Origin: Squalus acanthias
Lineage: Eukaryota
Direction of reading: 5' to 3'
DNA: 64,000 nucleotides
Assembly: GCA_030390025.1 (NCBI GenBank)
Contig: CM059446.1
Location: 12,710,001 to 12,774,000, forward strand
Both the position numbers and the translations under genes were made by a program. The notes beneath the pieces were generated by a model. The model worked only from the letters and a program-made list of their open reading frames with translations, did no database searches and was not told where the DNA came from. Shown here in pieces: positions 3,725 through 64,000 of this stretch. Each line of letters begins with the position of its first letter. Positions within the stretch are counted from its first letter, which is position 1.

Positions 3725-4460
3725 GGCACAGTTTTAAAGAGTGTGCAGGGACAGAGGGACCTGGGAGTTAATGTGCATAGGTCCCTGAAGGTGGCAGGAC
3801 ATATTGAGAGAGTGGTTAGCAAAGCATATGGGATCTTGGGTTTCATGAATAGAGGCATTGAGTTCAAAAGTAGAGAAGTTATGCTGAATCTTTATAAAGT
3901 GCTGGTTAGGCCACAACTGGAGTGTTGCGTCTAGTTCTGGTCACCACACTTTAGGAAGGATGTGAAGGCCCTTGAGAGGGTGCAGAGGAGATTTACCAGA
4001 ATGGTTCCGGGGATGGGAGATCTTAGCTACAAGGACAGGTTGGAGAAGCTGGATTTGTTTTCATTAGAGCAAAGGAGGTTGCGGGTGATTTGATAGAGGT
4101 GTACAAGATTATGACTGGTTTGGATAGGCTAGACGGGGAAAGGCTGTTCCCACTAGTTGATGGTACAAGGACTAGGGGACACAGATTTAAGGTTTTGGGC
4201 AAGAGATACAGGGGGCATGTGAGGAAAACCTTTTTTACGCAGCGAGTGGTGATGACCTGGAACTCGCTTCCAACGGAAGTGGTGGAAGCGGACACACTCA
4301 ATGTTTTCAAGGGGAGACTGGATAGGCACTTGAGGGAAATAAACTTGCAGGGCTATGGGGATAGAGCGGGGGAATGGGACTGACTGGATTGCTCTGCAGA
4401 GAGCTGGCACAGACTCGATGGGCCGAATGGCCTCCTTCTGTGCCGTTATGACTCTATGAC
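3725..4460 (+). mobile_element. CR1 LINE 3' fragment
   Basis: QRDLGVNVH...LVRPQLE, RTRGHRFK, WNSLP; one in-frame stop and a frameshift; atgactct tail. Confidence 0.92.
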
Positions 4461-4465
4461 CTGCA

Positions 4466-4525
4466 TCATTGATGAGGAGAAACTGATCAAGCTCATTGAT
4501 AAGGAGAAACTGATCGAGCTCATTG
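4466..4525. repeat. 27-bp tandem duplication (about 2.2 copies)
   Basis: tcattgatgaggagaaactgatcaagc / tcattgataaggagaaactgatcgagc / tcattg. Confidence 0.9.
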
Positions 4526-7329
4526 GTCGAGCATGCCCTTCTGGACCTAGCTCTCTCAGCAGTGGCTACTTTGACACTCGCTGAGATTTGCCACAGGAAG
4601 GCTGTGCCTCAACCTCCTGCTGGTGTCTCATCCAAGGAAGCTTGCAATTCCAGTTTAAAAGTATGCAGCAATTTATGTGTGACTCAGCTTCCCATTGGAA
4701 CAAGTGCACGTGAGAAAAATCACTGGGGTAGGGGCAGATGTTTTAGCTGGGGGGGTTGGAAAGGAGAGTGGGGCCTATAAGAGAGCAGGTAGTCTTAATT
4801 AAAATCATTTTAATATCACTGTATTCCCAACCATGTGAGAGAGTCATCAGTGCACCTGCTGTAACCACATGATGCATTAAAATCATTTTATATTAATGTA
4901 ATTATAAAGTAATTATAGTTAAAAAAAAAAATGATTTTAAAGTGATGTAATCCTTTATATAATTCATTAAATACATTTCGGTGCTAAGCCAGAAATTGAA
5001 TATGTAGCCTCAAAAAATTAGATATTGGATAGAATTAAATGAATATATAAACAGCAGACCTTGGAAATCCTCTGTGAATTACTGAGAAATAAATATCTTT
5101 CAGTGGAAAAGCTCTGCAGAGTATCGAGAAATAAATAAGTATATAATCAAATATATCAAGGGAAAGGCTGTGTGAAATAAATACATCTTGGAAAAGCTCT
5201 ATGCAGTGAGGAATAATAAAATATGAACATAAAGGCTCTTTGGAGAATGCGGTATTAAATAAATACCAGTGGAAAGCTTCTGGACTGAGGTATGAGGTAA
5301 TATTCATTAGAGAGGAGAGATCACGAAGGGGGAGACTGGCCCCCTGAGGCCCCCGGGTTCAGATTTACGTACAAATATTGCCTGATTTTTAAAAAAAAAT
5401 TTATTTGGACAGTATTCCAGTGGATGGGAAATGGTGCGGCAGTCTGGTGTGCCAGATCTCAGCCCACTTTAATGCCTGCTCAATTTTGTGCCTTCATTTC
5501 TGGCAGGTGGTGAAAACACCCACTGTAAAACGGGTGGGCGTATTTAAATAAGGTGGTAATGACTTGGTAACCTCATACATCTCATTTTCTGTTATTGTGG
5601 CCTCATTGACGCGCAGCAGAAATCATATCCAGGGTTGCTAGGTGATGAGCAAATGAAGGAAATACATTTAAGGAGTCGAACATGTTTTATTTGAATTTGT
5701 TCTTGGGATATGGATGATACTGACAAAGCAGTATTTATTGCCCATCCCTAGTTGCCAGGAGGGCATTAAGAGTCAACTACATAGTGTGAAATATGTAAGC
5801 CAGACCGGATAGGTCCCTTTTCACAACAACACAGCAGCTTTCATGGCAATGTTTTCTGGTGCCAGCCAACAAATTACCAGATTTATCAAATTCAGTTTCA
5901 CAACTTGTCATGGTGAGATTTGAACTTTTGATCTCTGGGCTGTTAACCACTAACCACTCTATGTATAATTTCAAGAGAATCCTTATTTCTCCATTGATTT
6001 AGGATTTTTTTTTCTGCTGCCCACTAATTAATCTTCTGCTTTTCTGCCATTTGGCGTGCGGCAGTCTTCATGCCACCCCTCCCCTTCAGTCTGTGCACAA
6101 ATTGGGTTCTACATTGGGAATTTCCCACTCTCTCTGCTTTCGGGAAGAGGAGGAAGAGGAATGGAAGGAGGCAAGGCTGCTCTGGAGATGTATGGCACTA
6201 ACCTGCCAGAACCTCCCACACCCGAGGATACAGGTAGAGGCGCTCCTATCTGCATTTGCGCAAGAAACAGGAGCAGCAGAGGCTGAAGAGGATGCAGAGG
6301 ACAAGGTTTTTCCTGGCTGCAAGATGCATTCATGCCATACTAATGCAGGAGACTTTCTCTTGACTGCCACATTTGGCCACTGCATGCGCAGCCGTATGCC
6401 CATCTTCCTCTTCCCACCACTAACATACCATCATCTACAGTAACTTCCCTGTGTGCATCAACTCACACAGCTTCCATTCCTACCAGCTGATGAAAGCACT
6501 TCTACACCGTGCCAAAAAATGTCTGTACGCAAACAACTTTAGTATAGCCATGTTGTTCTGAATTGCTGGCAGGGCTGGATGCAGACCAGCTGCCTTTTTC
6601 TCCCTCTGCTTCTTCCTCAGGTATATCTAGGGAGGAAGAGAGGTTAAAATAGGTTGCTGAGGAAAACCGTTCACTAGTCACTTTGAGTAGAAGAAGTGAC
6701 AAAAGTTTCATGATCCATTTTGATAACATGTACATTTTTAAAAATTGTTTATGGATAAGATTTCCCCCCCTTCTGTAACCTATCCCCTTCTTTGCCAACC
6801 TGGCCTGATGCCTCTCCAATCAAGACAACAAGAGCATGACCTGATCTGAAACCATCATCAGTGCACCTTATAACCAGCTGCCTGAATGGGAGGATTGCCA
6901 AAGACTTGCCCGGTCGTGACTCTGCACTCTAATTTTCACTTGCCTTTGTGGAAGACAAGACAGCTTCCACTTGGCACCTGTTTGGATCAGGAAGTGAATG
7001 GAGCAGGACTTGAATCTACTCTGTGGCACTGAGCATTTTATCATTCAATCCAACATTTTTCAAGTAGAGGAAAGTTATAAGAACTAACTAGGGCTCTGGT
7101 GAAGTTCCACTGGATGAATAGGAAGCAAACATAGTATTAACAAATTAGCTTAAAATAAGTGGAAACCATTTTAAGGAGATGGCTGGAGAAGAACCCGTGA
7201 AGCAATAGCTTAATAAAAAAAAAGCGAGCATCAATTTAGAAGGGAAAGAACCTGTTTCACAAACCTCCTTGATTTCTTTAAGGATATTATCAATAAAATA
7301 GACAGTTGAACTCCCTATATATTGTTTAT

Positions 7330-8015
7330 TTGTATTTTCAAAGAATCTCTGATAAGTCCACTTGAAAGGCATATTCATGCAAGTCTAAGGTAGGATAGGT
7401 GACGAGATAAGAGTTTGGTTACAAAATAATAAACAGAATTATCATGGGAAGGGTAGCGTTGGATGGTGGTGTTAGAACTTGGATCCTATTGCTTTTATGT
7501 ATGCAGAAGTGACTTGGCTGTGGAAACCAAGTTTGTATTACATTTGCAAACCCTAAAATAAGGGGAATCAGGAATGCAGTTAATGATGTGAAGGAGGATT
7601 TAGATCAGCTATCTAACTGGGCAAACATATAGAAAATTAAATGGAATAATAAATTTAAAGTCCAGAAAGAAGAAGAGGATCTCATCAGTGTATGCAAAAT
7701 ATTAAATGGTACAGATAAAGTGAGTCCAGAATATTATTTCAAGATGAATCAGACCAATGGGTTCAGATTAAAGGCGCAGGCATAAATTTAAACTAATGTA
7801 AAGTACATTTAAAACTGAGCTAGAAAAATTTCTCTGCTTAGAGTAGTCAATGTTTGACCTAATCTGCCAAGTAAGGTAACAGAATCAGCCATTAGGGACA
7901 TTGAAAATATAATTCAATGCTAGTCTTTTAGTGAATTAATCAGAAGAATAAGTATTAATGATCTGAATGGCCCTTTCTGGTCCTTGACTTTTTCTTGTGT
8001 TCTTCTAATGTTCCT
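7330..8015 (+). mobile_element. Old, degraded CR1 fragment
   Basis: Remnants such as gataagtccac, gatctcatcagtgtatgcaaaatatt, agagtagtcaatgtttg and the ctgaatggccc tail. Confidence 0.55.
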
Positions 8016-9099
8016 GCATGTTTCTGGATTTCATGAAATCTGTGCCAGAATTGTGGAACAATACAGAATCTAAACATATCCTACAGAGAATAGATCAAGT
8101 TATACCCTCAGCTATTCTGAAATGCAGCCAGTAGTTTATGCAAATTGAAGTGAGGGACTCCTCTCACAAAACCCAGTTTTGCTAGGATTGCCAAGTAATG
8201 GTTATATCTTTGTAAAGTAGTTAATCTACATATTTTAAATCCACATTGTCATAGTCGCAGCACCCCAGATGGATGTTATTGCACAGCTTCATTGCCAGCA
8301 GAATCCTGATAGGATGTAGATCATTTTTGATAAACAGGAATAGATGGAAAGAAACATTATTTACTTTGAGCAAAGTGATTAAATCAAAGAGATATTACAG
8401 ATGTGTTGAGGCTGATCTTTGCTTTTGGGTTTGTATGTGTAGAATGACTATCTTCTTGTCCAGATACTGGTCAAAATCTATTTGAGACCACATTCACCTT
8501 TGTAATGTGTCCCAATTATCCATTATTCCCTACAATTATTGTGCTTTTTTCACTTTGGAAGACTGCGTTAATATGTTAATTTGCTAGTGCAAGTTCTCAA
8601 CGTGTCAAAGGATTAAACCATGTACTTGCTTTCTAAGAGCAGAGGGCGTTTCTGGTTGTCATGCCATTTCAGCACAAAGTACAGTTGCAAAATAGTGCTA
8701 TCAAGGTAATTGTTAATCAATATGGCATACAAAAGCCACAGTTAAAGGTTGGGTAAATGTCGTGCTGTATATAAACAGAGAATTCAGATTGTTCATTGGC
8801 AGGTGCGAGTCCAGTCTCATTCTCTTATGTTAGCTACAGAATAAAAATAAATCTATATTAGACTACCTTTCTTTCAGTAACCTATGATGCAGTACCCTGT
8901 AATTATGTTTTCAACTCCCTACAGTTATCTATTCTAATGTAGAGCAAATTCTCATTCAGTGAACTATAATAATGAACCATGGCATTTTCTTAACCCTTTG
9001 ACAACTCAAGTAGCTTCTCCATTATCACAGTGCGATTCTTCCCATCATGCCTGTACTGGCTCTTTGAAAGAGCTATCCAAGTAATCCACACCCCTGCTG

Positions 9100-10135: not shown

Positions 10136-10169
10136 GTTTCCACATGCAGCCAAATACCTGGGACAGGTT

Positions 10170-10485
10170 TTTTTAAATTTGTTTTTATGGGATGTGGGTG
10201 TCGCTGGCAAAGCCAGCATTTATTACCCATCCCTAATTGCCCTCGAGAAGGTGGTGGTGAGCCGCCTTCTTGAACTGCTGCAGTCCATGTGGTGAAGGTA
10301 CTCCCACAGTGCTGTTAGGGAGGGAGTTCCAGGATTTTGACCCAGCGACGATGAAGGATCGGTGATATACTTCTAAGTCAGGATGATGTGTGACTTGGAG
10401 GGGAACTTGGAGGTGGTGGTGTTCCCATGTGTCTGCTGCCCTTGTCCTTCTAGGTGGAAGAGGTCGCTGGTTTGGGAGGTGCTGA
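10170..10485 (-). mobile_element. Non-LTR retrotransposon 3' fragment (same family as 16728-17088)
   Basis: Close reverse complement of about 16765-17088. Confidence 0.8.
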
Positions 10486-14657: not shown

Positions 14658-15351
14658 GGGCTGGATTTTGTCTTGGGGTCGGGTTGGGGTCGTGTAATCC
14701 GCATTTCGTGTTTCCCCCCCGACTCCAGATTAATGTGGATGCCTGATGCAATTTTCACTTAATTGGGCAATTGAGTTGGAGCATGTGGGAACCCATGAAC
14801 TAATTAGTGTTTTCAGTCTGAAAGTCGCCTCTGATGATGTCATCATTGCTGACTGCCTAGTCTCAGAGACTGTTGGTGAGAGAGGACCTGCCGAGAGAGA
14901 GAGAGAGAGAGATTTTTTTTTTTGCCAAGCAAGTCCTCCCAGGCAGTCTCTGAAGACATTCAATGCAGCAGCATCAGAGGCGACGTTCAGACCTAATACT
15001 ACTACCTTCATCACATCTCCGTTGTAATAGTCGACCTGCAGCTGATAGTCAGCTATCCACTTGTGCTCCCGCCAGGTTTCACTGGAGTGTTTCACACCAG
15101 GCGTGCTTCACGTCAGAAGAGGGTTAAACTAGCGACAGCGTTTCAAAATGGCATTACAGAGCCAATTTACAGCTTGTTAAGGGCTTTAATGGCCTCTCCC
15201 GCCTCTTGAAGGCGGGACGGAGTCGGGAACCCCGCGACTGATTCTGTCAAAATTGCGTGGAGGCGGGATGGGGTCGGAAACCCCGACCCCGCAAATTTAA
15301 CCCCCCACACGCCTCCAAACCCGACTCCATGGGTCATTCAAAATCCAGCCC
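14658..15351 (+). mobile_element. MITE of about 695 bp with 12-bp TIRs GGGCTGGATTTT
   Basis: gggctggatttt ... aaaatccagccc; homologous in opposite orientation to 53473-54168. Confidence 0.85.
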
Positions 15352-15643
15352 ATGGTCCATTAACTTGTAATCCAGCAATTCGTTCTTATCAGTCTTCCAG
15401 GAAAGCTCTTTGTTTACAGATGATTCATCTTTACATTGAAGTATGAGAACAGAGGTCACTTTTTCTGAAGTAAACAAGTACATACTTAGCTTGAAAAGTG
15501 GAGGCCGTGCTTTTAATTAATTGTAAATTATTTACAGTGATTACATTCTAAATTTGTTAACCATTAAACAATAGGTTAGACCGGATACCTGATGGTGCAA
15601 CAAGAAAATCCTAGTTCCCAAAACACTTTTTTTACTCCTTCAG

Positions 15644-15827
15644 CACATTGCACAGTCGCCTGCGAAATGATCAGTCTCAACTCAAGGAAGAAATGGAGGT
15701 CATCAGGAGGGAGAACACCCAGTTGCTACGGGAACACAATCATGTACAACAGACCTGTGAGGAGCTGAAGAGACTCCATGAGGAGGATCAGAAAGAGATC
15801 ACTGACCTACGCAGCCAGCAGCAACAA
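15644..15827 (+). CDS. DLG5: DLG5 coding exon, (H)TLHSRLRNDQSQLKEE...DLRSQQQQ, coiled coil
   Basis: Pyrimidine tract + cag acceptor, caa|gtaggt donor; 184 nt, phase 2-0; matches human TLHSRLLSDQTRLK...LRAQQQQ. Confidence 0.94.
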
Positions 15828-16727
15828 GTAGGTGTTGAGCACATGCTCTCTTAGATGTTTTTCATTACAAATCAGCTGAGTTTAAAGCTGAAGCACATTC
15901 TTCTGAATTGTATGATTAAGGTGGTCTCTCAATTATCTTCTGTTTATAATGAGTTATATTTCTGAACTGCTGGGAGCAGACATTTTGTTTGGAATTCCTT
16001 CCCTTCGCCATGTGGTGACAATGAACAGGAACCATGGGCAGTGGACAGCACAATGCCCCATAAGGGGTTTGGGGCTGTTGTATGGAATGCTTGATCTTAG
16101 ACTGCCACTGACCACCACTGTTACCTAGCAATAAGGCACAACCAAAACACCATAATAAGTCTTCAGATACTTTCCTTTGGAATGCTGAAGGTTTATTGAC
16201 AGTTTGGTCTGGGGTATGGAACGTCGTTGTGATGTTTACTGTGTTTCTACTCTGAGCCAGCAAGGTGGAGCACAGTGAGGCTGGAAAATGGATTACAGTG
16301 GAAGGGCCCAAGGAATGGAGCACTGAGAGACCAAGGAGTAGGGTACAGAATTTTAAAATTAAATCCAGTGCACCACAAGGTTTGTTACGGCTTTCCTTTT
16401 GCTAGCTTGTTAACTGCTAAAACAAACTCACGTAACTCACCACAGCAGTAAAAAAAAATCTTTAGCTACACACAATTTCCATTACAGCTGCCACCCAAAC
16501 TGCTCTAAAAGGCCCACTAGTTCCATGTTGGGAAGTTAACATAGCTTGCTTGTCCACCTTTCGACAGAGTTTGCCTGTTGAGTAGTGCTGAGCGCATGGC
16601 ACACTGCGGTATTTTGAGGATTTGAATCCTGAATCTGATTTCCAATCAGAGGCTGTATCTGGGAGAGTTTTTGTTTGTATAGTTAGAACACTTTAAGTGA
16701 TGATTGACAGCAAGACTCATTGTTTGC

Positions 16728-17088
16728 TGTACAAGATGCACTGCAGCAACTCACCAAGGCTTCTTCGGCAGCACCTCCCAAACCCGCGACCTCTTCCACC
16801 TAGAAGGACAAGGGCAGCAGGCGCATGGGAACACCACCACCTCCAAGTTCCCCTCCAAGTCACACACCATCCTGACTTAGAAGTATATCGCCAATCCTTC
16901 ATCGTCGCTGGGTCAAAATCCTGGAACTCCCTCCCTAACAGCACTGTGGGAGTACCTTCACCACACGGACTGCAGCGGTTCAAGAAGGCGGCTCACCACC
17001 ACCTTCTCGAGGGCAATTAGGGATGGGCAATAAATGCTGGCCTTGTCAGCGACGCCCACATCCCATAAAGAAATGAATTAAAAAAATA
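16728..17088 (+). mobile_element. Non-LTR retrotransposon (CR1/L2 group) 3' fragment
   Basis: SFIVAGSKSWNSLPNSTV...FKKAAHHHL is typical of an ORF2 C-terminus; A-rich end. Confidence 0.8.
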
Positions 17089-19786: not shown

Positions 19787-19886
19787 AATAAAAACAGAAA
19801 ATGCTAGAAATACTCAGCAGGCCAGGCAGCATATGTGGAGAGAGAAACAGAATTAACGTTTCAGGTTGAGGATGACCTTTCGTCAG
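19787..19886 (-). mobile_element. Short Penelope-like 3' unit with hammerhead core, ~13-bp TSD
   Basis: agtgaatagtaat (19777-19789) / agtaaatagtaat (19885-19897); minus strand reads ctgacga-a-aggt-loop-acct-gaaacgtt. Confidence 0.8.
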
Positions 19887-22800
19887 TAAATAGTAATGTC
19901 TGTGAGGCCTCTTTCAGTGTCGGTAAGGTATGCAATATTTTCAACTTGTGTTACTTTGCTGCGTTACAATGATGGATGAACCACTGTTACGTTTAGATTG
20001 AGTGGGGCTGTGATAACCATGAGAAACCACACTCCAGTTCAGCGAGTACCCTTGCACATTGCCATGGGAGATCTCCTTGTATTCTTATATCTTACTGCAG
20101 CCTAAGTGCATTTTTCAAGAGCCAAATGTTGTGATCCATCATGAAAAAGGCTTTATTTTTCTAATTGTGTAACTTGATAAATTTGAATTTCAGTGGTGTT
20201 ATGTATCTGCCAGACACTGCCAAGTATAGCCACTTTAGGACTTAGTAGAATCCTGTTCTTTGTGAAAGGGGTTGAATAATTCAATACACCATTTTTGTAG
20301 AGGCTGAATAATGGGAGAAAGAATAGGTTTGCTTTCTATAAAGTGTCAGGGAAGATCGGTACACAATGGGCAATGCATTAATTTTAAATCATTCTTCCAT
20401 TATACAGTCTGATCTATCAAATTGTAATTATCCTTTAAATAATTCATTAAAGAATGATGCTTATTCTTTAGTAATATTCTACCTGAAGTCATTTTAATAA
20501 AATCTTAAACTTTTACAAAATAATCTGTTCACATGCATTTTTGACTTTTTTTAATGGCTTCTATTTTTTTTTTAAGTGTTTTTCCTTTTTATGGTGTTCG
20601 TGTGCCCAACACTATTCTGCATTTACTGCCTATATTCCTCGTCCATCTCAAATATGTGCTGGCTAAATTTAGGATTTTGCTGTGTGGCAACAACAGATAT
20701 AAACCTGAGTTCCATCCTCCTCGTTATTCCATGAGGAGTATGTCAGTATACCGGTATCAGCTCCACCTAGAGATTATAGGTGTTCAGAACCACGTTGTGA
20801 AATATTCAAGTGGAAAATCAGAAAAATCATTCCAGAGAACAACTTTTATTTTTTTTCTTTAAGAAACTGGTGATTTTACCTGGGAGAGGTTAATGGGATG
20901 AAATTTGCATGCAGAATTTGCTCCCAGTCCAATTCTGTCACTGTATTTTGCATAGTGAGCCTTGCATTTAGTGCAGTTTCGCAAATCAAATCAGAACCCC
21001 CCTCCATGCTAGGCCGCTCCGTGACGGCTGTGCGACCTCGAGTGACTCCATTGGAAACCAGTCCAGGAGCCAATCTGGACCCATATAACCCCGAGAAATT
21101 GTACTACCGTCCGTGACACCTAGCAGGGAGGGAGACACGACTGCAGATCTCTCTGCAGCTGACAAAATTCAAAGACATCAAATTAGATTCTTGTAAGTAC
21201 ATTATTTTTTTTCTCTAAAATGGTGGAGGACCAACAGACAAGGACCTGGACTTTCCTTCCCTTTGTACATTAAATATGAAACTCTGCATTTGAACAAATG
21301 GGTATTTCCTGAATTCCAGACGGTGATTATTCTGAAAATGCAATTTTTTTGGAAAGTATACATTCTGATAAGTATGTTCCCTGAATTTTTGACTTAGTTA
21401 ATCAATGAGGAAGAAAATATAAGGGGGATATGTTTATTTGCATTACATTTTTATTAGTGTAGTGATCTTTGAAAACCATCAGGTGATTTTCAAGTCTTTT
21501 TATCATTGTCATGAATGCTAATAGTGTATGAGCTGAAGTAAATAGAAAGCTTTACTTGGCTTGATGTGTTGAAACGTATATGAAATAAATAGGGGTAAAA
21601 CTACTGCCTTTAAGGTTGACTGATAGTGAAGGGTGGTGTTTTTATCCCTGATAGTGATGCATCAGCTTTGTTTTTTAGAGGAGCTGTAATAGATGACTTT
21701 TCCCTTCAGGCCTGAGACACTTAAAGGCCAAGGGAATGATTGAATAAAGCCTGCTTATTCAGGTTCACAGCTTCTATTCATGTAGGACAATGCTACTTGT
21801 TTGATGAATGCTTTTTAAGTTCAGATTAGAAAAAGAAAGCCTTTGCAAATTGAATGAAGTGAACATTTTGGAACTATATATAAACATTTAGCTGACACAT
21901 CTCCAAGGGGGAGATTTTATAGAAAAGTTCATGGTTTGGAAAGAAAGAACTGAAGCAGCGATGTGGCAAAGGTTCTTGGAAATGTTAAGTCCACGGTTCA
22001 TTTGATGCAAGAAAAGAGCTTAGTTTGTAAAACCAGCCTCTGTGCGTTAAAATAAGCAAAAGTGTGAGTGGAGCTGACTTTGTTTGACTGTGAAAAACAA
22101 TTCCTGAACTCCAAGTTAAAACTAAACCTTAGGAATCAAAATCAAAGTTTGTGCAAACAGAGTAACCACTTGACAGGCGTGAAAGTCAAAGGTCACTGTG
22201 AACCACACAAGCGAAGTTTTGTCCTTCCAGAGTTTGTTTTTCACATGTGGAAAGTTTCTGAAGTTACAGGACCATTTATGTTTTTCAATGCTTAATATGT
22301 GCATAAATTAGATTTTTTATAAATGCAAGTTCTTAATGCGAATTAAATCTTACCAAATTTGAGTATATACAGTAACTAATGTGCAGTGCACATGGAGGAT
22401 AACTCACTTATAAGTGTAAATACAGAATTTGCAACACATGTGAATAGATCGTCTTTGATTAGTTTGCAGTCGATTATTTTGAAATTGGCACTTACTGTTC
22501 TGATACCATGCAAAGCAACACTAACGCACGGACCTATTGACTCTGTTGCACGGTTTTCTACTAGGTAGAATTATTTAATTTTGTCCAAAAGTTTTTTTTT
22601 TCAAGTTTACCTTTGTGATGAAAAAAGAAACGTTGACTTATTTATACCACTGCACAGCTAGTATACTTCAATAGTGAACAGACAGACTAGCAAATTGCTG
22701 CATCAGCATGTAATATCTCCATGGCCTTCCACTACTTGAAAAGTGAACATCCATTGCTGCTGTACTGGAAGGCTTCTACCAAAGCATTGTGCCTCGTCAC

Positions 22801-42484: not shown

Positions 42485-43742
42485 TTAAAACAAGTGTGGA
42501 TTAATTAAGGAAAGCTCGCACGGATTTGTTAAAGGCAAATCGTGTTTAACTAACTTGATTGAGTTTTTTGATGAGGTAACAGAGAGGATTGATGAGGGCA
42601 TTGCGGTTGATGTGGTGTCCATGGACTTCCAAAAGGCCGATGATAAAATGCCACATAATAGGCTTTCCAGCAAAGTTGAAGCCCATGGAATAAAAGAGAC
42701 AGTGGCAGCATGGATACGAAATTGGCTAAGTGATAGGAAACAGTGAGTAGTGGTGAACGGTTGTTTTTCGGACTGGAGGAAGGTACACAGTGGTGTTCAC
42801 CAGGGATCGGTACTAGGACCACTGCTTTTCTTGCTATATTTCAATGACTTGGGTGTACAGGGCACAATTTCAAAATTTGCAGATGACACAAAACTTGGAA
42901 GTATAGTGAACAGTGAGGAGGATACTGATAGACTTCAAGAAGACATAGACAGGCTGGTGGAATGGGCGGACACGTGGCAGATGAAATTTAACGCAGAAAA
43001 GTGCGAAGTGATATAAGCAGACACGATTTCATGAAAATTGCGTGGAGGCGGGCTTGTGCCCGCCTGCCAGTTTTCGCAATTTTAACCCCCCACACGCCTC
43101 CAAACCCACCCTCCACGGGTCAATGAAAATCCAGCCCATAGAGTACAAAAGCAAGGAAGTTATGATGAACCTTTATAAAACACTGGTCCGGCCTCAACTG
43201 TATTGTGTCCAATTCTGGGCACTGCACTTTAGGAAGGATGTGAAGGCCTTAGAGAGGGTGCAGAAAAGATTTACGAGAATGGATCCAGGGATGAGGGACT
43301 TCAGTTACGTGGATAGACTGCAGAAGCTGGGGTTGTTCTCCTTAGAGCAGAGAAGGTTGAGAGGAGATTTGATAGAGGTGTTCAAAATCATGAGGGGTCT
43401 GGACAGAGTAGATAGAGAGAAACTGTTCCTATTGGCAGAAGGGTCAAGAACCAGAGGACACAGATTTAAGGTGATTGGCAGAAGAACCAAAGGCGACATG
43501 AGGAAAAACTTTTTTACGCAGCAAGTGGTTAGAATCTGGACTGCACTGCCTGAAAGGGTGGTGGAGGCAGATTCAATCACAGCTTTCAAAAGGGAATTGG
43601 ATAAGTACCTGGTAGGGAAAAAATTTGCAGGGCTACGGTGAAAGGGCGGGGGAGTGGGACTAGCTGAAGTGCTCTTGCAGAGAGCGGGCACGGGCTCGAC
43701 AACCGAATGGCCTCCTTCTGTGCTGTAACCATTCTATGATTA
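42485..43742 (+). mobile_element. CR1 RT and 3' fragment interrupted by a MITE end
   Basis: [27 protein letters not shown], then resumes at IEYKSKEV...; attctatg tail. Confidence 0.93.
43017..43137 (+). mobile_element. One-ended fragment of the GGGCTGGATTTT MITE
   Basis: gcagacacgatttcatgaaaattgcgtggaggcggg...aaaatccagccc is a close reverse complement of about 53473-53604. Confidence 0.88.
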
Positions 43743-51392: not shown

Positions 51393-53472
51393 ATGTCCTT
51401 GGCAGTATAAATCTACAGGGAGAGTGGGCTCTGAGAAAAGGGGCAATAGAAGCGTTCATTTAGCACATCAGTTCTTTGTAAGTAGGTGCAGAAAGACTAG
51501 GTATGCAACACTTCCATAACATAGTGCACGGCAAGCCCTCTGTACATGTGGTTGTGCAGCACCGCAGTGGCCTGCTGCACTAAACCTTTTGGGGGAGGAC
51601 ACTCATCCCTGCTTTCTTTTTGAGATGAGATCTTAGTATGCTGGTGGCTAGATCACAGGATTACACTTTCAGCTCAGCATTTTTCCAGGGTATGCAACAG
51701 AGCAGCCAATTCTCTTAGTCAGCTGTTAGTTCATCTTTGCGAGTGGACCATCCACTCAGAGATAGTTGAATACGTTTTCAGTAGTTAGAGGCATCCAGAG
51801 ATAGACTTGTTTGCCTTTCTGGACAATCAACAGCTCTTAGATTTCTGCTGAAAATTGTGCATAATTATCCATTTGGCTACCGCTTAGTCATGCACTATAC
51901 TGTTATACTAGAGGGAAGATATCCAAGTATCCAGGAGGGAAGGGGCTCCTGCATTGGAGCTACAACACCAACAATGAAACATGGGTGTGTTAAAGGTTAT
52001 TCTGTGCTTACTAGGCATTAGGTTCCAGTTTATATAACATGTAAAGCTGCTACATGGAGCAGTTCTCAAACACTTACTGTCTCGACTTAACTGCAGCACA
52101 TGACTACACCTTTGGCAGATCGATCCTGACATCTGGTGTTCTAGCTGCTCTGCAGGAGTCTCCCCTTCCTAAACCTACACCACTTGCATATGCTCCCACG
52201 ATGTGTGGAGAATGTAGAACGACTATGACAGATATCTTGCCTGCCTTGAAAGGTTGTCTTCATTCTTTGAATGTGTTATGCACACACCACAATCCCACCC
52301 TGCAAAGGTGCAACATTGGTGCAGTTGTTAGTTTCAGTTTTGCTTCAGGTCAAAGTAAATAGGCACAGTAATGCTGGTCCTGTGGCTTCATTCAGTGCAA
52401 GAGGAGGCAACACCACCTATCTGCTCAGTGCATGGTTTCCCCAGAAACTATCAAGCTAGGCTATACTTTTGTAGTGTGTGGAGAATACAAATCATTTGTA
52501 AACTCCATAAGACCCCCCCCCCCCCCTTGGTGGATACTCCATTTTATTATATTGAAAGCATAGTTGCACAACACCATAATATATTGAATAGACATACAGA
52601 CTTTGCACCCATCCACATGTACAGACTGATTACATAGAATTACATAGTATTAAAATGTCCAAAGTAAAAATGAGTTCCTCATCAAAAACAAATATCTCAC
52701 GAAACTAATTGTAATTCTGATAACTGCCATCTGGAGCAAAAACATACTGCACAGTGGAATTTGAATTTTGTACTTGAATGACATTGTTTAAAAATACCAT
52801 CACCACCACTTATTCCGCCCACACTATGGCGGGCAACCGTCTATCACGGACAATTAACGATAACCATTTTGAATCGCCATAAAAATCAATTAGAAAGGCG
52901 CCGCTTACAATGTATTAAGTGCAATGGCTATTTTGGGCCGACTCGGCTGTTCAATAAACGCTTTGCAGCTCGTTAAAGTGCGATTACCTTAATCCTCTGT
53001 ACTTACAGTTTTAAAACCTCTGCAATCAAACGTTTTGTTCTTCTGGTTCTGAGTCTGTATATACATTTTATACTTGTATTTAGATATGAGCTTTCAAACT
53101 GCTTTGGAGAGGTATCGCAAACCTAAAAATAGATATTTAACGTCTTAAACGCAGCGCTCTTATAATAAGATCATTGCGGTGCCATTTCCTTCCAAACAAA
53201 CTTTTTTGTTGCATCTAGCCACTATTCATAGAAACCTGATAAAAATTGCTGCTCGGGTACTTTATTCTGGCATATGTATCTCCTTCTGTATTTAGTTTTT
53301 GAAATACCAGTGCTATTGTCCGACCACTTTTAGCTGGCAAATCGCGTTAACACCAACGTGTCCACTAAAAGCAATGGGGAGCTGTGCCAAAAATTCATCG
53401 TAAACTTTTCAATCCCAATTAAACTGTAACGTTTTACATTCACAGGTGTGTTGTTACCATTTGGTAGACCAT

Positions 53473-54168
53473 GGGCTGGATTTTCATTGACCCGTGGAGG
53501 CGGGTTTGGAGGCGTATGGGGGGTTAAAATTGCGAAAACTGGCGGGTGGGCACAAGTCTGCCTCCATCCCGCCTCCACGCAATTTTCATGAAATCGTGTC
53601 TGCTGGTCCCGACTCCGTCCCGCCTTTAAGAGGCGGGATAGGCTGTTAAGGCCCTTAACAAGCACTAAATTGGCTCTATAATGCCATTTTGAAAGGCCTT
53701 TGTGATTTTAACCCTTGTTCTACGTGAAGCACGCTTGTTCTAAACCACGATTGTGAAACCTGGCGGTAACACATTTCGAAAGCTGACTATCAGCTGCAGG
53801 TCCACTATTACAACGGAGAAGTAGTAGTAGTAGGAAAAATATCAGGGAGCAGACGGATGCTGCTGCTCATTTTGCCTTCAGGTCTTCTCACAGCAAAGGC
53901 CTGTCTCTCTGTGTCTCTCTGTCTCCAGACTTTTGTATCCAGGTCCTCTCACAGCAAAGGCCAGGCAGTCTCTGAAGACCTTCAATGCAGCAGCAATGAT
54001 GACATCATCAGAGGCGACATTCAGACTAAAAACTCTAATTGGTTCATGGGTTCCCACATGCTGGAACTCAATTGCCCAATTAGGTGAAAATTGCATCAAT
54101 CTCCCACATCCAATTGCAGTCGGGTGGATGCCACGACCCCAACCCGCCCCAGTATTAAAATCCAGCCC
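53473..54168 (-). mobile_element. MITE of about 695 bp with GGGCTGGATTTT TIRs and CAT TSD
   Basis: cat|gggctggatttt ... aaaatccagccc|cat; inverted relative to 14658-15351. Confidence 0.88.
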
Positions 54169-54407
54169 CATGTGTCCATAGCAATACGTTTTGTAAGTTT
54201 GCTGAAGAAAAGAGCACCTTCTCTTTTGAAATATATAAATATTCCATTACACTTAGTTTTTTAATCTAGTTGCAGATACAACTGATGTTGTCTCCTTAAC
54301 TGTTGAGGCAATATTTTGGCACATAAGCTATTATATTAAAAGCAGGTCCTAGTTGAATAGTATTGTGGATAATTGAAACTGTGTACTCATTTTTTCCCTC
54401 TTTGAAG

Positions 54408-55436
54408 GTGGTTCCTCAGAGTTCTTCCTGGAGTGGACAGAATATACTTGAAACACTAAAGGAGTCTGAGAAATCTGGTAACTGTAGGGTTCACGAGTCG
54501 GAAGTACAGGTTCCCAATACTCGAAACTTGAAACACAACAGCTCAACACAGACGGACATTTTTAGTACAGACTCGAGTATACTTGACAGCAAAAATGATA
54601 GAGTCGATCACAAAGATGGCTCTTATTGTGAACTCAAACAATTTTCAAGCCGTTCTTTGCAGCCTAATACACATAGGACAGCTGAACTTACTTGCCACAA
54701 TTATTCAGACCATAAAACTGGTCCCTTCAGCCCAGAGATATTTTCTGATAGAGGTTATGGGATTGCCGAACACGATAAAAGACGCTTCACCTTTGACCCA
54801 ACAGTTGCGGATTGTGTGATGGTCGAGAATGATGTTGAAAAAGGGCATAGTTCGAAACACAACGGTGGCACCTGGCCAAAAATGATGGTGGATGTTTCAC
54901 CTTCTGAACCTGGGAAACTCTCCATATTCAAACTGCCAAAACAGAGGAAGCCCATCTTTGATCCAGATACCTTCAAAAGGCCACAGACTCCTCCAAAGAT
55001 GGATTATCTCTCCCCAACACAAAAACAGACACATTCTTCACAGTCCTCAAAGGCTGAATCTGGTTCGACGCCTCCCACACCTCCTAAGAGGAGTGATTCA
55101 TTCAAATTTAAACACAAACAACAAACTAGCTCTGCTTCAGACTCTACGATAACCACTGGGTCACCTCCGACCAGCCCCGCAGGGCCCCAATCCCCTATTA
55201 CCCTTGGAGTAAAACAGGAGACTACACATGAAGCTCATGATAGAAATGCTGGCCACTATCAGCCTACTCAGTACTTAGAGGGGAGTGCTTTAATGTCTTC
55301 GAGGACTTCCTCCGAGGAGGAAGGTAACCAGCGAGTTGAGGAAGTCGAGCCTGTGAACAGACGTCGACCGAAATCTGCTCCTGCTTTAAGACCCAGCAAA
55401 CTTGCTCCCTTGACCATCTCTGGACTGTCCCCTCAG
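54408..55436 (+). CDS. DLG5: DLG5 large linker exon (343 aa), VVPQSSSWSGQN...GGTWPK...RPKSAPAL...LSPQ
   Basis: tttgaag|gtg ... cag|gtacgt; 1029 nt, phase 0-0; PQSSSWSGQN, GGTWPK, FKRPQTPPK and RRRPKSAP motifs as in human DLG5. Confidence 0.95.
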
Positions 55437-57344
55437 GTACGTGATGGGATTGATCTGTAAATGACAGAAATTTATGTCTTTTTTAAGACCATCGTGAACG
55501 GTAGTAATTTTGTAGACATGGAAAGGGTTACAAACTTGATTTTCACGGTCATCACTTTAAGGCTACTGCTCAGGTAATTCCTCTGGAAAGATATTGATAT
55601 AGACACGTCCTGAGGTAAGTTCAAGACTAATTGTTGTGTGGTGAGGGGTGGGGGGGAGTGGCGTTTCTATAGATTGGCAGCTGCTTGTAAATCTCAAACT
55701 CCTGCCCTTTGAGAGAAGCCTGATCATCAAGATCCGAAAAACCAGCAGGAAATGACTGGTTTATAAAAAATAATTTTTTGACGGACATGCACGTACACAC
55801 AACTTTTCAACTTTTTTATTTATATAGTTGACATTCAACAGGTGAGTTGACGGTCAGACTCCTCTAAATTGTTTACCACCTCCACTACAATTAAAACAAA
55901 GACTCCTCCTTGACCAGGTGAGGGACTGTAAGCAGCTCTCGGGAGTCTGTTTGCATGCTGGGTGTCAAGCCTCCCTATAAAAGCCATGTCCAACCTACCA
56001 CTGACAGACCGTGTTCAATTTCCTTATAAGGGTGGTCAGAAGGGTGGAACTTTTATGTGTGTGAAGAACTTACCGAATAATGAAAGGTATTGCGATAGTT
56101 GCCCTTTATCCTTCAAACTGGGTTCCATACAGTTGATTTACTTTATTATTATTATTAGGGGGAGGAGAATTAACAAGGAAACTGGTTAAGTAATCCTAAT
56201 TAATTAATAAATGTGACGAATAACAGTTTACAGGAGGAATGAAACTTAGAATCATATGTAAAAAAACGAAAGAATAGAGATCCCCTGTCCAGGGCTTTTT
56301 GGCCGACTGATTCCAGAACAAAGTGTTGGGCAAACCTATTAATGGAGGACCACGTGGCTGTCCTGCAGATTCTGTTAGGCAGCAATATGAGAGCATTTGC
56401 AATCCACAGGGCAGTTCCTGTAGTGGAGTGACTCTTGATATATGGAGTTAGATCACAGATCAGCCATAACCTCATTGAATGGCAAAACAGGCGCGAGAGG
56501 CTAAATGGCCTACTTTTGTTCCTATTAGGATAAGGCATTGGTGACAATCATTGATGAGGGATAATACATTCTATTATCTATCTGGGCAACTCTTGAATTG
56601 ACTTCCCCAAAGAGGGTCAATTGATATAATTGGCTTCGTTAGGTCAGTGTAGATGCAGAAACATCTGGAGGACATGGAGATAGAAATTTGTGTTGCTGTT
56701 CAGACATCTGAAGTCATCAAAAGGACTGCAGGCAATGTCAGACTGATGGTATGTGACAAACACGAGAACAGGCCTCAGCAACAGTGCACGGTTAGGTAGT
56801 GTGGAACTAAGGTAGCCAGTAGGAGTGGAACCATTCAGGGGATAGAACATTACATCTTTTTGATCACCATAAATGCAGTATTACCTAGACAGTTTTGAAT
56901 TTTTTTAAGGACTGTTGCAAGAGAACATTAGAAGATAGAAATGCATACAGATGTGCCAATCTATTGGACCAGGCTGCACAATAATTTGTCTTTCTTGCCA
57001 AATTTCTCCCCTACCCCTTTTCCTTAAGGCGCTGATTCCTTGCTGGGGTACAGTTCCACAGGTATAATTTATCCATGGTACTACTTCACGTGGCCGTTAT
57101 TCATGTGTGAACCTGGGTAATGAGTTTTGGCATGTTATTTAACCATGGGAGCCATCAGAGCAAAACGTCATCCTGTCCAGCATGAAAAATATGCACCTGG
57201 AATTTCCATAGGTGTTCCCTGGCGGGAACTCAACAGACAAACTGGAGAAACGGAGTGAGCAACTAAAAATCGATCTCCCACTGAAATTGTGGTAGGAGTT
57301 TGGGAGTCCCCACAGGACTTCAGGGGAGCATCCCTGATTATAAT

Positions 57345-60542: not shown

Positions 60543-60764
60543 GTATTAAGTTTTCATTGGATGCCTCTCTGTACCATAGCTGCATTTTGTAAATTGACAA
60601 ATGACTTTACAGGATGCTTTAACAGAACAGTTAGCTTTTTCTGAGCAATGCGCACTTTTTCTGCTTCAATTTTGTCACCTACATTTCATTGAAGAATATA
60701 TAAATGAAGGTGTTTGTTTAGTTGATGAATTTAGTAAATTTAATTTCTACCTTTTTATACACAG

Positions 60765-60918
60765 GCAGTACACAGAGAAGCTTTGTGCCTTGTCCAGCGG
60801 TGACGGCGGTTCTGCGGAACCCAAATGTTCCTTTTTTCACTGTTCGCAGTCGCATGGTCCACAGTGCCAACTATCCTTCCATGGCTAGTCAGATGTGCTA
60901 TCCACATCCACAACATAG
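60765..60918 (+). CDS. DLG5: DLG5 coding exon, (G)STQRSFVPCPAVTAVLRNPNVPFFTVRSRMVHSANYPSMASQMCYPHPQH
   Basis: cacag|gc ... ag|gtatca; 154 nt, phase 1-2; resembles human GTVPRSLTPSTTVSSILRNPIYTVRSHRV. Confidence 0.88.
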
Positions 60919-62915
60919 GTATCAATCACCCAATAGATTTGGTTAGCAATCCATCTTCCCTGCTGTGAGCACTCTTGTGCACTTAGACAACTTTTAAAAC
61001 TAAGAGTTAGCAAAAATGTTCACTTGCAACATCTAATGTGCATATATTCTACATGCATACTTCTACACAGATTAAAAAATAAAATAAAACTGTTAATGGG
61101 CCTATGCAGCAATGCAAATAGCTGAGCTAGACTAGATAAGGATAAGTGTATTTTAATACTCCTGATTATAGCACTAGATCTTAGGTTTGATTCAACGTAA
61201 GTGGCTTAAAACAGGTATTTTAAAACCATTATTATGTTCTAATAATATACAATTGAGAAATTTATTACACAAACTTGTGCATGGAGTCAGAAGAGATAGG
61301 AGAGGTGATGAATGAATACTTTTCGTCAGTGTTCACCGAGGAGAGGGGCCATCTTCTTGAGGATGAGAGTGTGATAAAGGTGGATAGGCTGGAGGTGGTA
61401 GATGTTCTGAGGGAAGATGTTTTAGCAATTTTGAAGAACCTGAGGGTCGATAAGTCCCCTGGGCCAGATGGGATATATCCTAGGATTCTTTGGGAGGCAA
61501 GGGAGGAGATTGCAGAGCCTCTGGCTTTGATCTTTGGGTCCTCACTGTCCACGGGGATGGTGCCAGAGGACTGGAGAGTGGCGAATGTTGTTCCTCTCTT
61601 CAAGAAAGGAAATAGGAATGACCCTGGTAATTATAGGCCGGTTAGTCTTACTTCGGTGGTTGGTAAGATAATGGAAAAGGTCCTGAGGGATAGGATTTAT
61701 GACCATTTGGAAAGGGGTAACTTAATCAGGGATAGTCAACACGGATTCGTGAAGGGTAAGTCTTGCCTAACAAATTTGATTGAATTCTTTGAGGAGGTAA
61801 CTAAGTGTGTAGATGAAGGTAGAGCAGTTGATGTCGTATACATGGATTTTAGTAAGGCGTTTGATAAGGTTCCCCATGGTCGTCTCATGAAGAAAGTAAG
61901 GAGTTGTGGGATAGAGGGAAATTTGGCCGATTGGATAAGTAACTGGCTATCTCATAGAAGGCAGAGGGTGGTGGTGGATGGAACATTTTCGGACTGGAGA
62001 CCAGTTACCAGCGGTGTGCCACAGGGGTCGGTGCTGGGTCCTCTGCTGTTTGTGATTTTTATCAATGACTTGGAGGAGGGGACTGAAGGGTGGATCAGTA
62101 AATTTGCTGATGACACCAAGATTGGTGGAGTAGTGGATGAGGTGGAGGGCAGTTGTAGGCTGCAAAGAGACATTGATAGGATGCAGAGCTGGGCCGAAAA
62201 ATGGCAGATGGAATTTAACCCTGATAAGTGCGAGGTGATTCATTTTGGTAGGGCAAATGTGAATAAGGATTACAGGGTCAACGGCAGGGTTCTGAGGAAC
62301 GTGGAGGAGCAGAGGGATCTGGGGGTTCATATCCACAGATCTCTGAAGGTTGCCACTCAAGTGGATAGAGCAGTAAAGAAGGCCTATGGTGTGTTGGCGT
62401 TTATTAACAGAGGGTTTGAGTTTAAGAACCGTGAGGTTATGCTGCAACTGTACAGGACCTTGGTGAGACCACATTTGGAATATTGTGTGCAGTTCTGGTC
62501 ACCTCACTATAGGAAGGACGTGGAAGCATTGGAAAGAGTGCAAAGGAGATTTACCAGGATGCTGCCTGGTTTGGGGGGGAGGTCTTATGAGGAAAGATTG
62601 AGGGAGTTGGGGCTTTTCTCTTTAGAGCGGAGGAGGATGAGAGGCGACTTAATAGAGGTTTATAAGATGATGAGGGGGATAGATAGAGTGGATGTTCAGA
62701 GACTATTTCCTCGGGTAGAGGCAGCTGTTACAAGGGGGCATAGCTATAAGGTGCATGGGGGGAGATATAGAAGGGATGTCCGAGGTAGATTCTTTACTCA
62801 GAGAGTGGTTGGGGTGTGGAATGGACTGCCTGCTGTGATAGTGGAGTCGGAAATAACAACAGAAAACGCTGGAAAAACTCAGCAGGCCAGGCAGCATCCG
62901 TGGAGAGAGAAAGAG

Positions 62916-62952
62916 AGTTGACGTTTCAGGTCGATGACCTTTCATCAGAACT
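62916..62952 (-). ncRNA. Minimal hammerhead motif (mirror copy in the left arm)
   Basis: Exact reverse complement of 63640-63676. Confidence 0.72.
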
Positions 62953-63229
62953 GGGAAGAGCTGGAAATCAAATAGATTTAAGGCCAGGGTAAAGCTGGGA
63001 AAAGGGGGAGGGGATAAAGGAACAAAGGAGGAGATGAAGAGACATTAAGAGACATTAAGAGATATGCAAGGCTAGAGGTGGTGTTAATGTGACAGATTAA
63101 GGCTGAATGAAGTGTGAAATCCACTGGCAGAATGAAGGACAGCTGCCAGCTTCTAGGAGGAAAAAAAAAGGTGGGGGGGACAAATAAAAGGGTGGATAAA
63201 ATAAAATATAAATGTGATTGGAGCTGAGG

Positions 63230-63310
63230 TTATGATCTAAAATTGTTGAACTCGATATTGAGTCCAGAGGGCTGTAGCGTGCCTAAACGAAAGATGAGGT
63301 GCTGTTCCTC
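63230..63310 (-). pseudogene. Remnant of a Penelope-type GIY-YIG endonuclease C-terminus, EEQHLIFRLGTLQPSGLNIEFNNFRS*
   Basis: Hand translation; fits the recalled PLE ORF-end motif E..I..L.T..P.GLN; mirrored on + at 63312-63371. Confidence 0.78.
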
Positions 63311-63639
63311 TCGTTTAGGCACGCTACAGCCCTCTGGACTCAATATCGAGTTCAACAATTTTAGATCATAACCTCAGCTCCAATCACATTTATATTTTAT
63401 TTTATCCACCCTTTTATTTGTCCCCCCCACCTTTTTTTTTTCCTCCTAGAAGCTGGCAGCTGTCCTTCATTCTGCCAGTGGATTTCACACTTCATTCAGC
63501 CTTAATCTGTCACATTAACACCACCTCTAGCCTTGCATGTCTCTTAATGTCTCTTCATCTCCTCCTTTGTTCCTTTATCCCCTCCCCCTTTTCCCAGCTT
63601 TACCCTGGCCTTAAATCTATTTGATTTCCAGCTCTTCCC

Positions 63640-63676
63640 AGTTCTGATGAAAGGTCATCGACCTGAAACGTCAACT
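63640..63676 (+). ncRNA. Minimal type I hammerhead ribozyme motif
   Basis: AGUU CUGAUGA A AGGUC AUC GACCU GAAAC GUC AACU: stem I AGUU/AACU, intact core, 5-bp stem II, loopless palindromic ACGU stem III, GUC triplet. Confidence 0.75.
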
Positions 63677-64000
63677 CTCTTTCTCTCTCCACGGATGCTG
63701 CCTGGCCTGCTGAGTTTTTCCAGCGTTTTCTGTTGTTATTTCGGATTTCCAGCATCTGCAGTATTTTGCTATCGTAATAGTGGAGTCGGACACTTTAGGA
63801 ACTTTCAAGCGGTTATTGGATAAGCACATGGAGCACACCAGAGTGACAGGGAGTGTGATAGCTTGATCTTGGTCTCGGACAATGCTCGGCACAACATTGA
63901 GGGCCAAAGGGCCTGTACTGTGCTGTACTGTTCTATGTTCTATGTTCTTCTGACAGTAAAAACACGTTCGAATCAAATTACAGAGTTTTCTATTCTTAGT

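Follow-up and report, generated by a model that had tools for sequence, protein, structure and literature searches.

A minimal hammerhead motif in the pseudo-LTR of an abundant, young Penelope-like element within a shark DLG5 intron

The window, that is, the whole 64,000-nt stretch of DNA that was analysed, covered positions 12710001–12774000 of its chromosome in a 3.71-Gb shark genome. The exon at 54357–55460 shared 95–96% identity with shark DLG5, and a tblastn search with the shark DLG5 protein placed all exons on the + strand and in order. The hammerhead motif described below was intronic, as the preceding exon ended near 60916 and the following exon started near 64084, past the window end. 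This exon map bore out the claim of an earlier note that the motif is sense to the DLG5 pre-mRNA. The intron contained a reverse-transcriptase (RT) ORF of a LINE, which we take to be CR1-like. This ORF was entered by two head-to-head copies of a Penelope-like element (PLE), flanked by a target-site duplication. The features of the host intron and of the insertion were as follows.

60764–60916, + strand: DLG5 exon 5′ of the host intron, from tblastn of shark DLG5.
61257–62851, + strand: RT ORF of the host LINE, entered by the PLE (Pfam RVT_1, E 2.1e-37).
62838–62851, + strand: target-site duplication (14 bp), left copy.
62852–63310, − strand: left arm, an inverted 5′-truncated PLE copy without tail, carrying the same 2 substitutions as the right arm relative to the full-length unit L034.
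63311–63776, + strand: right arm, a 5′-truncated PLE copy with the last 19 endonuclease codons, a pseudo-LTR (pLTR), the hammerhead and a 34-nt tail.
63312–63371, + strand: 3′-terminal part of the PLE ORF, which stops at 63369–63371 and whose translation equals the C terminus of the PLE protein P0001.
63743–63776, + strand: PLE tail, an optional 30–40 nt extension (bimodal 3′ ends in 117 copies; PMC8557442, PMC11167929).
63777–63790, + strand: target-site duplication (14 bp), right copy, from which the LINE reading frame continued.

When the right arm was compared with L034, 2 substitutions and small indels were found. What set the two arms apart was a single 10-nt repeat unit, a single T and the tail; both were 5′-truncated within the final endonuclease codons. 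Known PLE traits include an inverted 5′-truncated copy and a tail of 30–40 nt on one end (PMC8557442), and the pattern of EN+ PLEs, with pLTRs from partial tandems, an inverted 5′-truncated copy and a one-end tail, was found in the shark element. The near identity of the arms could also be read as a fold-back read, in which case the palindrome and its antisense arm would be an assembly artefact. This was considered very improbable, as it would account neither for the differences between the arms nor for the 14-bp duplication that bracketed the pair, beyond which the LINE frame continued. Furthermore, 33 such head-to-head pairs were found, here and elsewhere in the genome, and PLEs are known to show this arrangement (PMC8557442).

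The right arm contained the sense hammerhead, and the parts of this motif and its relatives in the window were located as follows.

63640–63676, + strand: minimal type I hammerhead (min-HHR) motif, matching the min-HHR consensus (PMC4209133, Fig. S3) except at G10.1–C11.1.
63640–63643 pairing with 63673–63676, + strand: stem I, 4 bp.
63644–63650, + strand: core CUGAUGA.
63647–63649, + strand: ATG formed by core A6-U7-G8; in the full-length units of this subfamily, no other in-frame ATG of the 971-aa ORF precedes it.
63651, + strand: extra A after the core, the same base in 50/50 copies.
63652–63656 pairing with 63660–63664, + strand: stem II, 5 bp, closed by A10.1–U11.1, with a 3-nt loop.
63665–63668, + strand: GAAA.
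63668–63671, + strand: loopless stem III, the palindrome ACGU, with no loop III.
63672, + strand: C17, with the cut predicted 3′ of C63672.
62916–62952, − strand: identical mirror hammerhead, the antisense strand predicted to pair with 63640–63676 in DLG5 pre-mRNA.
2711–2843, − strand: short family copy with its motif at 2811–2850, antisense to DLG5, with U4→C and stem I truncated to 2 bp; 5′-truncated at the motif.
19787–19886, − strand: short family copy with its motif at 19850–19895, antisense to DLG5, with stem I broken and a 4-bp stem II; 5′-truncated at the motif.

All hammerhead parts and coordinates proposed for 63640–63676 were recovered from the sequence. The accompanying claim that three variants in the window keep the core did not hold for the motifs at 2811–2850 and 19850–19895, owing to the changes listed. 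With stem I of at least 4 and stem II of at least 5, a structural descriptor found 3 matches in the window, whereas 200 dinucleotide shuffles averaged 0.005 (1/200 had any). Looser settings added a chance-looking match at 54199, so the descriptor alone was non-specific. The exact 34-mer of the motif occurred in 3,272 copies genome-wide and 0 times in the reversed control. No hammerhead family was among the 8 matches of the Rfam scan at E ≤ 5, which is unsurprising where stem III is lacking. Those matches were miRNA-like hairpins caused by the palindrome and were all under the gathering score.

The window motif was therefore not a canonical type I hammerhead, for which an Rfam model match, a stem III and contacts between loops I and II are needed. 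It contained the CUGANGA, GAAA and NUH elements of the min-HHR, which was defined in the pLTRs of metazoan PLEs and has low activity as a dimer (Cervera and De la Pena 2014, PMC4209133). It shared with these elements the type I topology, the extra base after the core, the short helix I, the GAAA-C-GU-H order, and the palindromic 15.2–16.2 pairs of a helix III without a loop (63668–63671). The consensus pair G10.1–C11.1, a trait of >80% of min-HHRs (PMC4209133), was replaced by A–U in the window copy and by A–U or G–U in the shark family. This difference did not exclude the motif from the class, because rows with A–U and G–U occur in the alignment of PMC4209133. No cartilaginous fish was present in the 56-row alignment or Table S1 of that paper, as far as these were available. 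Reviews are in agreement with this comparison. The motif is thus of a known kind, and the addition of sharks to a list of many animals is a minor result.

Same-strand motif pairs, 3,198–3,199 bp apart, bracketed a single long ORF of 971 aa, which was intact in L034 and L035 and split in L036. The motif was found in both pLTRs around the RT and GIY-YIG ORF in L034, L035, L036 and L212, as in the ~3 kb RT+EN units of min-HHR PLEs (PMC4209133). At L212 and L213 (C4:15712500–15728000), three consecutive full 3.2-kb units each had an open 1004-codon frame. The ORF product matched RVT_1 and, at its C terminus, GIY-YIG in Pfam, both under the curated cut-offs. P0001 contained a DKG motif, a CxxC within the GIY-YIG domain and a CX4CxxC linker between RT and EN. 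The single ORF with RT, DKG and, at the C terminus, GIY-YIG with CCHH, which characterizes EN+ PLEs, was found in P0001 and P0002 at sub-cut-off Pfam scores. These full-length units supported the claim that the hammerhead belongs to a PLE.

The DKG, the CxxC in GIY-YIG and the Cys linker are features of EN+ PLEs and of Neptune/Nematis (PMC8557442). The shark element resembled Neptune PLEs (Craig et al. 2021, PMC8557442) in its C-terminal GIY-YIG with two internal cysteines, its DKG and its CX2–5CxxC linker, as well as in the partial tandems, the inverted 5′-truncated copy and the 30–40 nt one-end tail. Unlike in Neptune PLEs, the window site was without microsatellite targeting. The linker is also present in Nematis, and the clade was assigned by motif only, pointing to a Neptune or Nematis affinity. 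When homologues of the PLE protein were collected, 1,573 of the 7,999 scored candidates matched at E ≤ 1e-20, and no clade name was attached to any of the 120 matches listed.

The hammerhead was located 269 nt 3′ of the PLE stop codon, inside the pLTR. The description of this position as the 3′UTR was correct in that the motif follows the stop codon, and incomplete in that the pLTR also precedes the ORF in full-length tandem units, where it forms the ORF 5′ leader. The ATG of the core was 26 nt 5′ of the predicted cut. In PAc, a Poseidon element of Anolis carolinensis (Frangieh et al. 2024, PMC11167929), the hammerhead likewise lies where pLTR and ORF meet, and an in-frame ATG precedes the cut by 26 nt. 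However, the PAc ATG follows the core, whereas the shark ATG is inside it and is probably not the conserved start, which is Met57. The core ATG was missing in the C7 subfamilies, one of which kept only the Met57 start, and several homologues began at Met57; the core ATG may therefore be incidental. PAc also differs in lacking the Cys linker that the shark PLE has.

The downstream 30-mer anchor of the family had 49,523 genomic copies. Four core plus stem II patterns gave 40,692 matches genome-wide, of which 40,543 pair at 10.1–11.1, so that about 40,500 copies retained the core and stem II, compared with 4,000–9,000 in coelacanth and Xenopus (PMC4209133). The family is young and high-copy, with intact ORFs. 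As in min-HHR PLEs, the copies were mostly single and truncated, and opposite-strand pairs also occurred (PMC4209133). Eleven near-identical variant motifs were found within 0.64 Mb at C19:9273945–9910051, probably through segmental duplication.

The conservation sample consisted of 50 copies found by the downstream anchor and long enough for the motif (117 found, 7 segmental duplicates removed, the remainder too short). It was drawn from the first 7.5 Mb of C1, because eight 10-kb stretches of C2 and C3, sampled without targeting, yielded an anchor match in 0. Positions with a second letter in at least 5/50 copies numbered 0/11 in the core, 1/20 in the stems, 3/5 at free positions and 10/43 in the flanks, and the sole variable stem position was a pair-keeping A/G. 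The expectation that the core would be more conserved than the flanks was supported by a core without subfamily variation beside variable flanks, and weakened by a Fisher test giving p 0.08 for the core alone (0.016 for core plus stems), in copies related by descent. The anchor region 3′ of the motif was likewise well conserved. The C and G of the palindrome were retained in 49/50 and 48/50 copies, respectively. Four public runs carried the labels of four other organisms; in their contigs, aligned at ≥80% likeness, variants reaching at least 8% occurred in the motif only at N7, 10.1, loop II, H17 and 1.1.

In the genome as a whole, the 10.1–11.1 pair was A–U in 25,919 copies, G–U in 14,256 and G–C in 368, with an A–C mismatch in 149. 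The position was thus paired in 99.6%, and C11.1 was about 4.5-fold commoner beside G. These genome-wide counts replace those of alignment A1, in which 23/46 rows had been fetched by a pattern demanding G–C, so that its compensatory count at this pair was partly circular. A search for differing stem II sequences gave 73 matches, among which double mutants of the main families predominated, with a few old divergent copies; this set was too small to strengthen the case.

The earlier note had proposed a ribozyme-processed family with an end at 63673. When 5′ ends were mapped against 16 natural reference copies, 101/110 copies extended more than 3 nt beyond the predicted cut, and only 5/107 had an end no more than 2 nt from it (0.009 per nt), 2 of these 5 being rearranged. 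None of 11 ORF-bearing loci started exactly at the cut (nearest −7); nine of them reached −200 or further, and six entered the coding end of the preceding unit. The proposal was not supported by these ends. Because the genomic 5′ ends did not pile up at the cut and most ran past it, the templates were mostly uncut at the hammerhead. Truncation instead fell within the inactive hairpin described below, where 46/98 copies at risk ended at −42 to −10 (0.014 per nt, versus 0.003 per nt just upstream). Truncation and inversion junctions at the 5′ side clustered in this hairpin, at the window equivalent of 63631–63663. Tandems are derived from cut-and-ligated circles in the model of PMC4209133, and the seamless shark tandems fit either such circles or read-through transcripts.

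A pyrimidine tract with an AG at 63626–63641, ending at the start of stem I, resembled a 3′ splice site, and the D. virilis intron ends at helix I (PMC4209133). No splice junction at the stem I AG was found among the 15 listed of 25 joints. The GT[AG]AG donor was absent from the pLTRs of 7 long copies, and one was found in the endonuclease coding end of 5. An intron reading was unsupported, because neither a donor nor a spliced form was found in these sets.

In fold predictions, the minimum-energy fold of the monomer was a long inactive hairpin (−9.5 kcal/mol), and an active-like monomer fold with stems I and II alone had a probability of 0.001. The double hammerhead of a natural tandem was 13.8 kcal/mol above the ground state, in nearest-neighbour models that leave the core unscored. 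When the two folds were compared in A1, 97.7% of cells were paired for the hairpin and 96.7% for the ribozyme. In a different reading, hammerhead catalysis would have been largely lost in the family and the motif would be kept as a stable hairpin serving the RNP, through protein binding, RT pausing, translation or a 3′ splice signal. The inactive hairpin is preserved by all common variants and gathers 5′ ends that do not accumulate at the cut; U11.1, not the consensus C, is present in 99% of copies, and the pyrimidine tract and AG stand immediately 5′ of stem I. However, residues C3, A9, G12, A13, A14 and A15.1, unpaired in the hairpin, were also invariant among subfamilies, and a plain hairpin needs none of them. 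In addition, the homologous motif of the anole shows core-dependent cleavage with protein (PMC11167929), and S. mansoni min-HHR dimers are cleaved, at a low rate (PMC4209133). Loss of catalysis was therefore considered unlikely.

The motif is very probably a minimal hammerhead in the pLTR of a young, high-copy shark PLE that would cleave only weakly, as a dimer or aided by protein, with the copy in the DLG5 intron predicted to be inert through antisense pairing. Dimer cleavage of this motif is plausible from the literature. PLE hammerhead dimers were described by Lunse et al. (RNA Biol), as cited in PMC6765202, and 8/9 dimers of Xenopus retrozymes were uncleaved in vitro (Li et al. 2026, preprint 10.64898/2026.07.22.740005). 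In the anole PLE, the hammerhead needs protein for cleavage and is dispensable for insertion (PMC11167929), and PMC8557442 describes what PLE hammerheads do as unclear. The activity of the PAc hammerhead was measured (PMC11167929), whereas the shark hammerhead is known here from sequence and folding. In the proposed mechanism, the hammerhead would rest as the long inactive hairpin, where copying would often halt or flip. Cleavage, when it occurs, would require two motifs exchanging strands through the ACGU palindrome. It would take off the 5′ leader and would probably trim or circularise tandem read-through transcripts.

The 3′ ends of 117 copies were bimodal, at +61 to +72 and +93 to +111 from the cut (about +69 and +103). 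Two 3′ end classes also define the tail in PAc, in which insertion mainly uses uncut RNA as template (PMC11167929). Reverse transcription in the shark may likewise have two start sites, some 69 and 103 nt 3′ of the cut, as was measured for the anole PLE. Since these start sites would lie 3′ of the cut, the 3′ hammerhead would have to stay uncut on the template. Among head-to-head pairs (L009–L133, window included), 32/33 had one long, tailed 3′ end and one short 3′ end (binomial p 8e-9 versus one half), in a set that may include a few neighbours without relation to each other and for which some loci had been chosen as pairs. From this count we infer one cDNA per start site, primed on opposite target strands. 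The anole PLE protein nicks and extends both strands (PMC11167929). The two arms in the window would then be two cDNAs from the two start sites, primed in this manner.

Short hammerhead arrays were found among loci with the 5′ segment of the ORF (L172–L216), 14/27 distinct loci being short partial tandems with a period of about 270–390 bp. Examples are L202 (C6:31694500–31702500), L175, L198, L203, L207, L210 and L216. Their junctions were not at the ribozyme cut but joined +190..+254 to −61..−173, often at −131/−141. The same junction recurred 2–4 times per insertion, and some arrays were within a single target duplication. Target duplications of 9–15 bp were present in 8/22 loci tested (controls at most 6). 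In L178, L203, L207, L210 and L216, the middle unit contained sequence absent from both end units, and unequal crossing-over after insertion therefore cannot yield these five arrays.

The arrays resembled vertebrate non-LTR retrozymes (Cervera and De la Pena 2020, PMC7229834; preprint 10.64898/2026.07.22.740005) in their tandem units of about 270–390 bp with one type I hammerhead each, and tandem units with complete same-strand hammerheads were found in arrays such as L202. The window locus differs from retrozymes, being an inverted pair with one motif per strand and a single sense motif, not a tandem. Furthermore, the shark arrays carry minimal, not canonical, hammerheads, and their junctions are mostly private. 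Li et al. derived retrozymes from pLTRs, with a mean of 363 bp in one chondrichthyan, and ascribed array growth to unequal crossing-over (preprint 10.64898/2026.07.22.740005).

The short arrays look as if copied from small circles. We tentatively suggest, as a possibility short of an expectation, that these are retrozymes being born. The PLE RT would copy small pLTR circles, or jump repeatedly round a short RNA, with ends joined near −131/−141 and +190 to +254 and not at the ribozyme cut, and would lay down hammerhead tandems in one insertion. Every inverted insertion would use both RT start sites once, and the hammerhead would act as a conditional switch, shut on templates and armed only once tandems exist. 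A literature search, mostly of papers outside subscription, found no description of these junctions or of the one-long-one-short count. As tens of thousands of near-identical copies with intact ORFs are present in this young family, questions of PLE transposition can be read from the genome. The copies indicate mostly uncut templates, inverted pairs of tailed and tailless copies, and short hammerhead arrays arising during reverse transcription.

Masking of the DLG5-intron copy by its antisense arm, as had been proposed, is a strong prediction. The fold of 62801–63800 (−892.9 kcal/mol) formed the arms into one duplex in DLG5-sense RNA, and all 37 motif positions were predicted to pair with the antisense arm with a probability of at least 0.997. 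The antisense arm is transcribed before the sense motif in DLG5. The hammerhead of this intron is predicted to be inert because of this pairing. A host-recruited intronic ribozyme regulating DLG5 splicing or turnover would suit the motif's sense orientation in DLG5 and its position some 400 nt upstream of a splice acceptor. Such recruitment is hardly credible for an insertion this young, 2 substitutions from L034, inside another transposon and one among about 40,500 similar copies. The predicted full pairing of the motif and at least 2 further intact sense copies in later DLG5 introns also argue against it. For DLG5, the sole likely effect is that one intron would contain double-stranded RNA of 450 bp.

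Past the window, the DLG5 introns contained four further sense-strand family motifs, at window-equivalent positions 88224, 94372, 101675 and 103331 (L047–L049), 2/4 with an intact core and palindrome. A 317-nt inverted repeat (10168–10484 and 16769–17085), 94% complementary and 6.3 kb apart, was located around the DLG5 exon at 15639–15830. A second repeat family was present in both orientations at 14706–15370, 43016–43150 and 53454–54136, and one of its copies was apparently inserted in a LINE RT frame near 43016. Degenerate direct repeats (3 × 32 nt) were found at 5062–5220, with spacings of 42 and 85 nt.
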